This document shows positions 42,410 through 46,115 of a stretch of 64,000 bases of DNA, one piece after another. The stretch lies in NCBI RefSeq assembly GCF_037042905.1, contig NC_087251.1, positions 5,272,001 through 5,336,000 on the forward strand. Reading direction: 5' to 3'. This DNA is from Lytechinus pictus. Taxonomy: Eukaryota. The notes under the pieces were generated by a model. That model did no database searches. It worked only from the letters and a program-made list of their open reading frames with translations, and was not told where the DNA came from. The position numbers were made by a program, and so were the translations under genes. Each line of letters opens with the position of its first letter. Position 1 is the stretch's first letter.

Positions 42410-45400
42410 ATGGCAAAACCAGTGAATACCTTGCCAGAAGACCAGGTGGGTCGGTATTGTGCAACGCCTGATCCAGCTACAAAGGTACATGTATATAAAA
42501 CATTACATATTCAAATTCCATAGAATGCAATTATGACACTAATTGCTGTTAATGTATGTAATTTGATTAACGGAAATGAAATTCTTGCTCAGTGTAGTTC
42601 GCATGCTGTATTATTTCATGAAAAAGGTGGATCCAACGCCAGTGTTTTGTTATCATGTTCTAACTTGTAGATATGCGGTTGTGTACAAACCGTCGTCGGC
42701 GTTCATCCAAACCGTCGTATCAGTCAATTTTGGTCCCAAAAAAAATAGATTTAGAGATTTTTAGAGAATATGAAAGTACAAGACCTATTCTATTCAAAAC
42801 TTAACTTCTAGGAAGCAATTAATTTTAGTTTCTGAGATATGAGGGGATTTCGTGGCGATGCCATACACATTTTTAATAAAATTCGAAAATCCAATTGGAA
42901 AGGTGTACTGTAGCAGAGCGATACGACGTTTTGACTGACCGCGATGTCAATGCGCGCGGTCAGCCAAACCAGCCAAACTGTGGCGTTTTTGTACAGGGGA
43001 AATTTAAACCACTCAAACCGAAATTGCAAGCATGGAGCTCTTTTGCGATATTTTCTCCTATCCTTGGTTTTGTGTAAAAGTAAGTATACCAATGTCAAGC
43101 AATTGTCTTGGTCTTTCCAATCATGTATTTTTCTAGCAATGAATATGTTGTAAGACTCGGGAACTGTGAAAGTGTGAAAATTTATATATATATATATATA
43201 TTTCAATTTTCTAAGTTTATTTTCTTTAATGATATTTTATGACTGAGCCACCTATAATGAAATCATTTTCATTTTTAAATGATATTGACGAATGTTATTT
43301 CATAACATTCGTCATTACCATCATCATTACCAATTAATTATCTTTGTTATTTCATATTGTTTTAGTGTTGTTATTGTGGTTTGATTTGATCTTTAGTTTA
43401 TAAATTTGAATATATGCAATATATATTATTATACGTGTAGGGTTTCATCATGCAACAGACTATGTTTCGCATCAAAGATCCTCGTAAATCCCTGGATTTC
43501 TACACTCGAGTGCTGGGTATGAGGTATGTAGGCCTATAGTGAAAATATAAAAGAACCGTATCTACTGTAGTACAAGCTCAAATTTGCATGATTGAAAATT
43601 GTGTATCATTTTGAATTCCTTTCTGATAAATGTTTTTTTAACCCCCACCCTCCTTTATCATTTCTACTTTGCTTTATGTTTTTTTTCTTATATATTGTGG
43701 TAAGTGAATGTTTGGGCAGCGCCAGGGTTTTTAAATAGGGGGCAGCAAGAGTGTATATTTTTTTCTAAATTTAATTACGGGGGTAATTGAGCTACACGAT
43801 CTGAACCTCCCTTTTTTAATTATCTCCTTTCTTCCCCTTTCCCCCTCCACCTCTTTTCGCTACTTGAACGATCATTAGGGGCATTGACCCCTGCCCCCAC
43901 CCCCTGTGACGCAGCGCCTTTCATGTATGTATCTTTGTTTCTTCAGATTATTCACTAGACTAGATTTCCCTGATAGGAAGTTTTCTTTATTCTTCCTTGG
44001 TTACGCCGAAGAGTCTGCTATCCCACAAGACGAGACAAAAAGAATTAGATGGACCTTTATGCAACCGGCCACCATAGAACTCAGATAGTAAGAGATTCCA
44101 GAGATTTTTGTATTTCCTCAGTGGTGGTGGTGTTGATTATATGATGATGAAGATGATTATGATAATGACTATGATTGTGATGACGAAGATGACTGATGGT
44201 GATAATGATGACTGAGATGATGGTGATGATAATGGTGGTGATGATGATGATGATGATGATGATGGTGGTGGTGGTAGTAGCGTATATCGGCTGGTTTTAG
44301 CATGGGGAGGTGCACATCTTGGGGAGCTGGAACTAAAGTGGTATGGGGGTGCACATCTTGGGGCGGTGGAACTACATGCAGTTTGGAAAATCAGCCGTCA
44401 AGAGCAGAAGTAGGGGTACAAATTTAGTTTTGGTTGCCAGTGTCGGAACTCCTCTGCCTCAGCGGGAGGATGCACGTGCACCCCAAGTATACACCCTTGC
44501 GATGGTGGTGGTGGTAGGCTAATGACAAAAAGACGATTATGATTATGATACCACTAACTACTAGGCCTCCTACTTCTACTACATACTATACATATGTCCA
44601 TTGATTGTTTGTGCATGTTAGATGATGTCGATTGGGAAAGGGAGAACTATTAAGAATACAACAATGTGTGTACACGCACACATACACACCCACACATCAT
44701 ATATATAAATTATATATATACTTATATGTATATTTATTTATATCATATTTTGTAGCATCTATGGCACTGATACAGACGAAAAGTTTACCGGTTACCATCA
44801 TGGAAATACGGAGCCTCTTGGATTTGGTAAATATTGTTATCATCGTCATCGTTACTATATTATCATTATTGTTGTTGATATCATTATTATTATTTTAATA
44901 TCATTATTATAGTTATTATCATCATCATTATAATCATCACCAACATTTTTATTTATATTGTTGATGATGTTAGTAGTAGTAGTAGTAGCAGCAGTAGTGA
45001 TAATATAAAGAAAGGAGAAGAAGAAGAAGAGAAAGAAGAAGAAGAAAAGGAAGAAGAAAGAAAGAAAGAAAGAAAGAAAGGAAGGAGGGAGGGAGGGAGG
45101 GAGGGAGGGAGGGAGGGAGGGAGGGAGGGAGGGAGGAAGAAAGAAAGAAAGAAAGAAAGAAAGAAAGAAAGAAAGAAAGAAAGAAAGAAAGAAAGAAAGA
45201 AAGAAAGAAAGAAAGAAAGAAAGAAAGAAAGAAAGAAAGAAAGAAAGAAAGAAAGGAGGGAGGAAGAAAGAAAGAAAGAAAGGAAGGAGGGAGGAAGGAA
45301 AGAAGGGGGATGGAGGTAGGGAGGAAGGAAGGAAGGAAGGGAGAGGGAGGAAGAAACCATAAACAATTTGGAAATTTGGAATTCAATTTTAAACTTTTAA

Positions 45401-46115
45401 CATAATGAACAGTGACCCCCCCCCCTTTCTGCAGATGATACTGATTGTTTATAATGACATTTTTTTCTTCAAAAAGTGACATTGAAAATGGACGACTTGA
45501 TTGGTTATTTACAAATTGGTTGACATCAGGTGTTTTGTTGTCCTTGCATAGGTCACATAGGATTGTCTGTACCAGATGTTTATATTGCTTGTGAACGATT
45601 CCAAAAATTAGGAGTAACGTTTGTCATGAAGCCAGATGAAGGTAATTCTTGTATTCACTTTCACCTTTATTGCTTTCATAATTTTGCTTTTTCAAACTAG
45701 ATAGTGGATTCATTTTTGTACTTTTTTTTACTCACGCCATATTTTATTTCGTTCTATAAACATTGAATATGGTTCCGGTTCAACTTTTACCCGGAACTGA
45801 ATGTGACAACGATATTGACCCGGTTCACGAGTCATTCTGGGTCAATCCGTGTCATTCTGGAAACCGGATTATTTCTAGTGTGTAAAGGGTCGGTTGCAAT
45901 TATGAGTATCTTATTCTCACCATCCCCTTCATATCTTTATATATTCATCTACTTATTTATTATTTTATTCTTTATCCCTGTATTGCTTCTTTTCAGGTCC
46001 AATGAAAGGCCTGGCTTTTATCCGGGATCCAGACGGGTATTGGATAGAGTTACTATCCGCGGATAATATGGCTAAATCCTGTGGTAAACCGGTATCAACT
46101 CATGTCTACTATTGA
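42410..46115 (+). CDS. GLO1: Glyoxalase I paralogue (GLO1-like, copy B), complete, 192 aa
   Basis: GT-AG exons 42410-42484, 43441-43523, 43947-44087, 44756-44826, 45552-45641, 45997-46115 (579 nt). Translation: [192 protein letters not shown]. Confidence 0.95.
44125..44280. repeat. (GAT/GGT)n microsatellite, intronic
   Basis: Trinucleotide runs seen directly. Confidence 0.9.
45005..45356. repeat. Polypurine tract (GAA)n/(GAAA)n/(GGGA)n, intronic
   Basis: About 350 bp almost free of pyrimidines. Confidence 0.95.

Follow-up and report, generated by a model that had tools for sequence, protein, structure and literature searches.

A glyoxalase I paralogue of sea urchins with a retained metal site and replaced glutathione-site residues

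Gene structure, family and predicted fold of GLO1-B

The window analysed here, a stretch of 64,000 nucleotides on contig NC_087251.1 of the laboratory species Lytechinus pictus, carries two glyoxalase I (GLO1) genes adjoining on the same strand: the canonical GLO1-A, whose first two exons lie upstream of the window, and a second gene, GLO1-B. The latter consists of six exons (nt 42410–46115, forward strand), with GT...AG at every intron and a joined coding sequence of 579 nt, coding for a protein of 192 aa plus the stop codon. Coordinates below are those of the window, negative numbers lying upstream of it.

-14586 to -14512 and -1250 to -1168, + strand: GLO1-A (canonical), exons 1 and 2, upstream of the window
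838–978, 3230–3300, 5841–5930 and 6950–7047, + strand: GLO1-A exons 3 to 6
42410–42484, + strand: GLO1-B exon 1, ATG at 42410, N-terminal arm of 25 codons, identical to P0129
43032–43079, + strand: alternative first exon of RefSeq isoform X2 (P0130, 16 residues), assigned by comparing the sequence with P0130
43441–43523, + strand: GLO1-B exon 2, QQTM with the equivalent of ligand Q33, and the equivalent of R37
43947–44087, + strand: GLO1-B exon 3, M65R codon (43975–43977), IEL (E99 ligand) and T101R codon (44083–44085)
44756–44826, + strand: GLO1-B exon 4, N103I codon (44757–44759) and R122L codon (44817–44819)
45552–45641, + strand: GLO1-B exon 5, GHIG (H126 ligand) and K150M inside FVMKPDEG
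45997–46115, + strand: GLO1-B exon 6, K156P (GPMK for GKMK), WIE (E172 ligand) and stop TGA
within 45997–46115, + strand: C-terminal tail encoded by exon 6, B-specific and conserved

Residue for residue, GLO1-B matches P0129 (XP_054757894.1, 'lactoylglutathione lyase-like isoform X1 [Lytechinus pictus]'), so that the intact spliced 192-aa ORF described in the earlier note is supported both by the exons and by a RefSeq protein. In isoform X2 (P0130) the alternative first exon swaps out the N-terminal arm. When intron 3 is left unspliced, an in-frame TAG occurs at nt 44086–44088; the model P0001 of L. pictus (119 aa) continues into this intron and ends at a stop, indicating that the predicted GLO1-B transcripts are not all productive.

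Homology search assigned the protein to the glyoxalase I family. Against TIGR00068, whose family cut-off is 120 bits, B proteins scored 183.5 (L. pictus), 184.3 (L. variegatus) and 189.9 (S. purpuratus), compared with 203.3 for S. purpuratus A and 208.6 for Diadema; the match of GLO1-B with Pfam PF00903 had an E value of 2.5e-23. The exact database match, the two 192-aa orthologues and the TIGR00068 scores together place GLO1-B beyond chance.

Exons 1–5 of GLO1-A and GLO1-B are alike in size and phase. Within L. pictus the two genes differ with a pS of 0.78 and a dN of 0.23 (Nei-Gojobori), and synonymous saturation combined with such a dN value indicates that the A/B duplication is old and constrained. 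In the phylogenetic tree B branches as the sister group of the echinoid A sequences as a whole, that of Diadema included, with a support of only 86/79, and a later origin of B within the camarodonts was not rejected (AU p = 0.232). B and echinoid A together form an echinoid-only clade (99/96).

Structure predictions point to the paired beta-alpha-beta-beta-beta VOC fold and to a homodimer with the active sites between the chains. The AF2 model of GLO1-B had a mean pLDDT of 87.2 and a pTM of 0.82, with a pLDDT of about 52 at residues 182–192, that is the C-terminal tail, which was considered as an intramolecular pocket ligand. The best Foldseek match was human GLO1 (7wt0_A, E 3.2e-26, TM 0.85), and ranks 1–10 were all human and mouse GLO1 chains (TM 0.82–0.85, normalised to the model). 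Modelling of the dimer, proposed in the earlier note, was performed with Zn and gave an ipSAE of 0.94 versus 0.00 for the best of three controls, with an agreement of contacts between runs of at least 93% and a partner pLDDT of at least 91. This mark was reached by 21/30 proteins solved as one-chain pairs and by 0/23 solved as single chains; among eukaryotic proteins it was reached by 17/29, but by 1/7 of those having no older solved relative, and the predicted GLO1-B dimer may thus come from the memory of the model, since GLO1 dimers have already been solved.

Residue changes and their conservation

Alignment with human GLO1 confirmed that GLO1-B retains the four metal ligands (Q31, E97, H125 and E171 in B numbering, corresponding to human Q33, E99, H126 and E172), which are present in all three B orthologues, as well as the R37 equivalent (R35), in agreement with the earlier note. 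Codon reading likewise upheld the four substitutions described there: AGG at nt 43975–43977 codes for Arg in place of human M65, AGA at 44083–44085 for Arg in place of T101, ATC at 44757–44759 for Ile in place of N103 and CTT at 44817–44819 for Leu in place of R122. The exons of GLO1-A were found to keep M65, T101, N103 and R122, as had been claimed; the residue equivalent to K156 is Ser in Lytechinus GLO1-A. Further changes in GLO1-B, absent from the earlier note, are K150 to M (B149), K156 to P (B155), L57F, E86K and E142Q/R, together with a conserved C-terminal extension of 13 residues. The previous count of two anchors lost and two arginines gained was therefore incomplete, K150 and K156 being lost as well.

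In the available text of the papers on GLO1, the entrance of the glutathione/inhibitor site is formed by R37, R122, K150 and K156, with T101 and N103 as hydrogen-bond partners, and M65 is included among the active-site residues; the substitutions thus fall, as proposed, on residues named there as the glutathione/inhibitor site. Five of these six glutathione/entrance residues are replaced in GLO1-B (T101, N103, R122, K150 and K156) and R37 alone is kept. The residues lining the hydrophobic pocket (F62, L69, F71, L160/M and M157) are kept in all three B proteins, and GLO1-B also retains M157, K158 and a full-length lid loop (GPMK).

The specificity of these changes was evaluated against 113 non-B GLO1 sequences, namely the window-derived GLO1-A and 112 of 130 collected proteins, after removal of the 3 B proteins, of 4 L. 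pictus models that were partial or mis-modelled and of 11 proteins exceeding 270 aa. At nine positions the consensus was 70% or more and the residues of B had a frequency of 5% or less: L57F, M65R, E86K, T101R, N103I, R122L/Q, E142Q/R, K150M and K156P. T101, N103 and K150 are invariant in 113/113 comparison proteins, from sponges to plants; at position 122, 26 of them have K and 1 has Q. Six of the nine B-specific positions are among 22 named active-site residues, out of 179 alignable (hypergeometric p = 1.2e-4), and five of the nine when a list of 18 active-site residues is used instead (p = 5.8e-4), both p values being qualified by the fact that the lists were drawn from the available text of papers when the GLO1-B changes were already known.

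The orthologues of L. variegatus (XP_041469653) and S. purpuratus (XP_782882) are both 192 aa in length, without indels. R65, R101, I103, M150 and P156 are fixed across the three proteins, and position 122 varies (L/Q); the substitutions are thus shared among species and not private to this genome, an eventuality the earlier note had raised. Between L. pictus and S. purpuratus, B is identical at 134/149 core positions and A at 136/149, and the corresponding tree paths, in this comparison made on proteins, are 0.175 (B) and 0.185 (A), following a B stem of 0.29. After a long stem, B has therefore been about as conserved as A since the Lytechinus/Strongylocentrotus split, which favours redesign over decay, as had been suggested before.

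In the databases searched, a recognisable B was limited to three species of two families, namely L. pictus, L. variegatus and S. purpuratus. The search with exon 3 gave 3 matches of 5 candidates, that with fragments 108 matches of 127 candidates, and for the full-length search the best 120 of 1902 matches were examined; a motif scan of the 238 collected proteins revealed no B-type motifs outside the three urchin species. The absence of B elsewhere is weak evidence, given the few urchin proteomes in these databases.

Possible function of GLO1-B

Taken together, the sequence data lead us to favour, with somewhat better than even confidence, the view that GLO1-B is a functional and selectively maintained tandem duplicate of GLO1 in which the glutathione-holding shell has been rebuilt, likely for a different substrate. 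The VOC fold would be retained, as would the domain-swapped dimer and a metal centre of the Zn type (Q/E/H/E), so that the protein could, like GLO1, still coordinate a 1,2-dioxygenated substrate at the metal and transfer a proton by way of an enediolate. The shell around this centre would instead be dismantled, the positive entrance being deprived of R122, K150 and K156 and the hydrogen-bond pair T101/N103 being lost, with the new R65 and R101 probably pointing into the cavity. Such an enzyme would no longer handle the methylglyoxal-glutathione hemithioacetal as a normal GLO1 and would isomerise another, probably anionic, substrate of the alpha-hydroxycarbonyl type, with another thiol or with none. 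As counterpoints, a glutathione conjugate might still fit a pocket having R37, M157, K158, the full-length lid loop and the hydrophobic lining, and R65 and R101 might merely replace R122, K150 and K156 as carboxylate anchors for the same ligand.

It is possible, but rather unlikely in our opinion, that GLO1-B still acts as a GSH-dependent glyoxalase I with rewired contacts, namely an isozyme with another Km or regulation (sub-functionalisation), in which R101 would replace N103 and R122 at the gamma-glutamyl carboxylate and R65 would compensate for K150 and K156. The retention of R37, the four ligands, M157/K158, the length of the lid loop and the hydrophobic pocket is in accordance with this possibility, as are the charge balance of the cavity (three positive charges lost, two gained), the score above the TIGR00068 equivalog cut-off and the Ser already present at position 156 in Lytechinus GLO1-A; position 122, occupied by K in 26 of the 113 canonical proteins and by Q in one, thus tolerates some change as well. 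On the contrary, the invariance of T101, N103 and K150 in 113/113 other GLO1 proteins indicates that functioning GSH enzymes do not allow free exchange at these positions, and in the cotton enzyme SPG, according to the available text on it, the loss of N103 and R122 accompanies the loss of GSH use. Moreover, the drift between L and Q at position 122 among the B orthologues is what would be expected if a ligand were no longer bound there.

The decay of a duplicate whose frame is intact by coincidence appears highly improbable: one alternative L. pictus model does stop in intron 3, but the 192-aa frame is free of indels in three species, the cross-genus core identity (134/149) is about that of the canonical gene, all splice sites are canonical and the synonymous differences of A and B have reached saturation at a dN of 0.23. 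GLO1-B could also be a binding or sequestering protein, or the partner of A in a heterodimer where two hybrid active sites tune A. Both chains build the active sites of GLO1, the B changes concern both the N-domain (65, 101 and 103) and the C-domain (122, 150 and 156), the two genes adjoin on the same strand, and pure binders with a VOC fold exist, such as the TnmS antibiotic-binding proteins among the Foldseek matches. Nevertheless, three species strictly conserve all four metal ligands, the catalytic glutamates among them, which would be difficult to account for in a protein devoid of catalysis, and we regard this role as improbable. Slightly less probable still is a glyoxalase I using another low-molecular-weight thiol abundant in urchin eggs, for instance ovothiol, which sea urchins make. 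The regions that anchor the gamma-glutamyl and the glycyl parts have both changed around a preserved catalytic centre, and changes at the K150 position switch thiol specificity in trypanosomatid GLO1, according to the available text of the literature. Among the listed papers containing both words, however, no ovothiol-glyoxalase enzyme emerged from title or abstract. The basic LRK(S/D)KD motif is intact at the two HAGH_C (glyoxalase II-like) loci found in the genome, so a co-changed glyoxalase II partner is missing among these two loci, unlike in trypanosomatids as described in the available sources. Ovothiol synthesis is far wider than the camarodont urchins, the only group where B was found, and ovothiol is a very acidic aromatic thiol, which should form hemithioacetals poorly. 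The suggestion of the earlier note that ovothiol may be the thiol of GLO1-B did not gain support from either the literature or the HAGH-like loci.

Within the preferred reading of a rebuilt GLO1 with a different substrate, a more specific and rather doubtful proposal is that GLO1-B is an animal counterpart of cotton SPG, namely a GSH-independent, metal-dependent isomerase/aromatase recruited to an echinoid-specific small-molecule pathway. The three-arginine pocket (R37, R65 and R101) suggests an anionic alpha-hydroxycarbonyl intermediate, and the polyhydroxy-naphthoquinone pigments (echinochrome, spinochromes) may be mentioned, as a speculation, as one candidate pathway. The literature searched contained nothing on a sea-urchin GLO1 paralogue. 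GLO1 is among the most conserved detoxification enzymes, and a rebuilt pocket held throughout the Lytechinus-Strongylocentrotus divergence represents a natural experiment in re-aiming a glutathione enzyme. Should GLO1-B be GSH-independent, it would be, as far as the literature searched shows, the first animal case of the route taken by cotton SPG and would hint at an unrecognised sea-urchin metabolite or pathway.

Comparison with known systems

The canonical glyoxalase I of the Zn-dependent type (human 1QIN/1FRO, mouse 2ZA0; EC 4.4.1.5) converts the methylglyoxal-GSH hemithioacetal into S-D-lactoylglutathione. GLO1-B is 53–58% identical to it over the aligned Foldseek columns, with a sequence match to mouse GLO1 (2za0) of E 7.8e-71. 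Metal ligands and predicted dimer are the same and the exon structure is shared with urchin A, whereas only R37 of the six glutathione/entrance residues is kept and M65 has also changed to Arg.

In Leishmania major, glyoxalase I (PDB 2c21) depends on trypanothione and offers an example of a thiol switch brought about by substitutions in the active site, among them one at K150. This enzyme is of the short Ni type and only 32% identical to GLO1-B. In the accessible part of a review, trypanothione specificity is attributed to the change of V149/K150 to D100/Y101 in the glycyl-carboxylate region, and the analogy with a modified gamma-glutamyl site drawn in the earlier note was therefore imprecise. 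On the same partial sources, the Leishmania changes concern the glycyl region and add negative or hydrophobic character, whereas GLO1-B has changed both the glycyl and the gamma-glutamyl regions.

Plant GLXI-like proteins, such as PhGLXI-like of Peganum harmala, are described in the available text as having modified conserved active-site residues and as being recruited to specialised metabolism; they belong to plant lineages and have no orthology to GLO1-B. Closer in taxonomic terms, the brittle star Amphiura filiformis has a divergent GLO1 paralogue (P0256, XP_072049666.1) with T101R, N103 to K, K150E and Pro at 156. Unlike GLO1-B, to which it is about 49% identical (89/184), it shows Q33 to H and R37 to L and lacks four residues of the lid loop. 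This protein has a very long branch (1.96) and did not group with B in the tree; a shared origin was not rejected (AU p = 0.246).

The nearest precedent, absent from the earlier note, is cotton SPG (Gossypium hirsutum, PDB 7vq6), a GLO1 paralogue of Zn-type length that keeps fold and metal ligands. As reported in the available text, SPG no longer has the GSH-binding site and has turned into a Ni-dependent aromatase acting on alpha-hydroxycarbonyl substrates, and deletion of GKMK abolishes GLO1 activity. Alignment of 7vq6 with canonical plant GLO1 showed N103 to F, R122 to I and the four-residue deletion of GKMK. Like SPG, GLO1-B is devoid of N103, R122 and K156 and preserves the metal ligands. 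SPG, on the other hand, deletes GKMK and keeps T101, M65 and K150, whereas in GLO1-B the loop is of full length (GPMK), T101 and K150 are lost as well and two arginines (R65 and R101) are new, which would make its cavity polar and positive, unlike the hydrophobic one of SPG. Since B is nested in the echinoid clade (99/96), its origin is independent of that of SPG, and any likeness between the two is convergent.

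GLO1-B, its paralogue GLO1-A and the intervening DNA

GLO1-B, the divergent glyoxalase I paralogue (hereafter B), is encoded by six exons linked by canonical GT...AG joins, giving a CDS of 579 nt and a 192-aa protein identical at every letter to P0129 (RefSeq XP_054757894.1, 'lactoylglutathione lyase-like isoform X1 [Lytechinus pictus]'). The window corresponds to G000:C7:5272001-5336000. Searching its 812-Mb assembly in six frames retrieved B and the canonical GLO1-A (hereafter A) as the only GLO1 genes. A lies on the same strand, ~35 kb upstream of B.

Exons of B and A and changed codons of B (window coordinates; negative, upstream of the window)
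42410-42484, +, B exon 1
43032-43079, +, B alternative first exon, start of the second RefSeq isoform (P0130)
43441-43523, +, B exon 2
43947-44087, +, B exon 3
44756-44826, +, B exon 4
45552-45641, +, B exon 5
45997-46115, +, B exon 6
43975-43977, +, AGG, M65 to Arg in B
44083-44085, +, AGA, T101 to Arg in B
44757-44759, +, ATC, N103 to Ile in B
44817-44819, +, CTT, R122 to Leu in B
-14586..-14512 (G000:C7:5257414-5257488, within locus L003), +, A exon 1 (MAESKN...), encoding MAESKNCLPAEEVDACCSEPDASTK
-1250..-1168, +, A exon 2
838-978, +, A exon 3
3230-3300, +, A exon 4
5841-5930, +, A exon 5
6950-7047, +, A exon 6

A third L. pictus model, P0001 (119 aa, different LOC number), carries an extra exon in intron 1 (window 42660-42730), retains intron 3, leading to a TAG stop at 44086-44088, and shows E, not K, as its third residue; these differences suggest alternative or unproductive transcripts together with an allelic difference. 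Long microsatellites occupy B introns 3 and 4 (window 44100-44280 and 44960-45360), made of (ATG/GGT)n plus several hundred bases of (AAAG)n/(AGGG)n, and explain both the high GC skew at 44-46 kb and a spurious minus-strand ORF of 170 aa.

The true exon 1 of A, ~13 kb upstream of its exon 2, is absent from the RefSeq Lytechinus A models P0011, P0122 and P0123, or replaced there by intronic read-through; once added, A results in a normal 185-aa, six-exon gene. Exons 1-5 have equal sizes (75, 83, 141, 71 and 90 nt) and equal phases in A and B, and the proteins share 121/185 residues (dN 0.23; pS 0.78, with synonymous sites saturated). Broken retroelement ORFs (rve integrase, Integrase_H2C2, RT_RNaseH_2; 31773-37703, minus strand) lie between the two genes in a G+C-rich block, and a separate RVT_1 reverse-transcriptase ORF was found in A intron 4 (4610-5296, minus strand). 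An isoform of S. purpuratus A (P0124, 244 aa; P0005) starts with 62 additional residues resembling an organelle-targeting presequence, whereas no extended isoform of this type was seen for B.

Residues were mapped by HMMER alignment to mouse GLO1 and are numbered as human GLO1 equivalents, following the crystal convention, which omits Met1. The earlier note had described an intact 192-aa protein with M65R, T101R, N103I and R122L at these codons and with the four metal ligands and the R37 equivalent kept; all of this was confirmed, but two further changes, K150M and K156P, had been missed. M157, K158 and the hydrophobic pocket (F62, L69, F71, L160, F162) are also retained.

Conservation and origin of B

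The B orthologues of L. variegatus (P0002) and S. purpuratus (P0003) are both 192 aa long, without indels. R65, R101, I103, M150, P156, F57, K86 and a 13-residue C-terminal tail are fixed in the three proteins. At 122, the two Lytechinus proteins have L and the Strongylocentrotus protein has Q. The tail (window 46074-46112), kept in 3/3 B orthologues, is absent from every other aligned GLO1. When L. pictus is compared with S. purpuratus, 134/149 core residues are identical in B and 136/149 in A. The B clade of the ML tree (support 100/99) has a stem of 0.29, and the path joining these two species measures 0.175 in B and 0.185 in A. Thus B changed fast once and has since been constrained like the housekeeping copy. 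The comparative evidence supports the earlier view of redesign, not decay.

A and B form an echinoid-only clade (support 99/96), B being sister to all echinoid A, Diadema included (86/79); the AU test did not reject a later origin of B (p = 0.232). No B-type protein or fragment from further species was found among the matches listed, from databases holding few urchin proteomes, nor was anything found on an urchin GLO1 paralogue in the published literature, supplementary tables of urchin expression papers aside.

Changed positions, predicted dimer and rival explanations

The three B proteins were aligned with 113 other GLO1, namely 112 of 130 proteins plus the window-derived A; the three B proteins, four L. 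pictus models that were incomplete or wrongly built and 11 proteins >270 aa were left out. A screen blind to function (family consensus >=70%, B residues at <=5%) returned nine positions: L57F, M65R, E86K, T101R, N103I, R122L/Q, E142Q/R, K150M and K156P. T101, N103 and K150 are invariant in the non-B set (113/113), where 86 proteins have R at 122, 26 have K and one has Q. In the literature, R37, R122, K150 and K156 make the GLO1 entrance positively charged, T101 and N103 hydrogen-bond glutathione-type inhibitors, M65 belongs to a published active-site list, V149 and K150 bind ligand, and GKMK is a GSH-binding lid motif, whose deletion abolishes GLO1 activity. Out of 179 alignable positions, 22 make up a literature list of active-site residues, and six of the nine belong to it (p = 1.2e-4); with a list of 18 residues the overlap is five (p = 5.8e-4), a test somewhat weakened by lists assembled with the B changes already known.

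In a broader sample (149 of the best 150 representatives at 50% clustering; 252 domains, 77 with all four ligands), T101 is T in 64/77, N103 is N in 68/77 and K150 is K in 63/77. Arg occupies 101 in 4/77 (P0265, P0302, P0294, P0256), and 103 is then E, Y, F or K, never Asn; across the wider family the B configuration is thus rare yet not unique. An alternative pocket may have arisen repeatedly among two-domain and divergent GLO1, including oomycete and brittle-star proteins.

B passes the TIGR00068 equivalog cut-off, ~13-25 bits under S. purpuratus A and Diadema. Its AF2 model (pLDDT 87.2, pTM 0.82; only ~52 pLDDT in the C-terminal tail) matches the GLO1 structures of human and mouse at TM 0.82-0.85 when superposed (Foldseek). 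Two copies plus zinc were predicted as a homodimer with ipSAE 0.94 (best control 0.00), the runs agreeing in >=93% of contacts and partner pLDDT being >=91, a result to be taken as likeness rather than proof of dimerisation because GLO1 dimers are already solved. The mark is reached by 21/30 proteins solved as same-chain pairs and 0/23 solved single chains, and by 17/29 eukaryotic proteins but only 1/7 without an older solved relative. Residues 63, 99-103, 120-131 and 155 are part of the predicted interface, so that the changed residues would sit in the inter-chain cleft.

We consider it somewhat more probable than not that B retains the GLO1 metal-enediolate chemistry but now directs it at a different substrate, probably an anionic one. 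The strongest alternative, to which we assign a clearly smaller share, is a rewired isozyme still dependent on glutathione, with R101 and R65 replacing the lost anchors. A non-catalytic or heterodimer-partner role is quite improbable, and a decaying copy scarcely credible, because the metal ligands are strictly kept and B is conserved. Ovothiol, raised in the earlier note as a possible cofactor, found no support and is very improbable: trypanosomatids changed both glyoxalase I and glyoxalase II, whereas both urchin glyoxalase-II-like (HAGH_C) loci, L005 (G000:C13:29681621-29684785) and L006 (G000:C10:6442800-6445889), keep the basic glutathione-binding C-terminal motif LRK(S/D)KD. The analogy drawn with a changed trypanosomatid gamma-glutamyl site is also imprecise, a review locating the GLO1 change there at the glycyl end (V149/K150) instead.

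Comparison with other altered GLO1 proteins

The brittle star Amphiura filiformis has a very divergent GLO1 paralogue (P0256, XP_072049666.1; branch length 1.96) with Q33H, R37L, T101R, N103K, K150E, a Pro at 156 and a lid loop shortened by four residues; it falls outside the urchin B group, and the AU test did not reject a shared origin (p = 0.246). In plants, an alkaloid pathway is reported to involve a GLXI-like protein whose active-site residues are altered.

The cotton specialized glyoxalase SPG (PDB 7vq6, 'a specialized glyoxalase from Gossypium hirsutum') ranks 23 in Foldseek for B. Compared with canonical plant GLO1 (P0070), ELTHNWG has become ELTHFWG (N103F), EPRGFGH has become EPIGFGH (R122I) and GKMK is deleted. 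According to a 2025 paper, SPG, of the gossypol pathway, has lost the GSH-binding site and is now a Ni-dependent aromatase of alpha-hydroxycarbonyl substrates, and neutralised entrance residues favour bulky non-GSH substrates. N103, R122 and K156 are lost in both B and SPG; B, unlike SPG, keeps the lid-loop length, additionally loses T101 and K150 and gains two arginines, which would make its cavity positively charged, not greasy. B is a putative new, animal variant of a kind already represented by cotton SPG.
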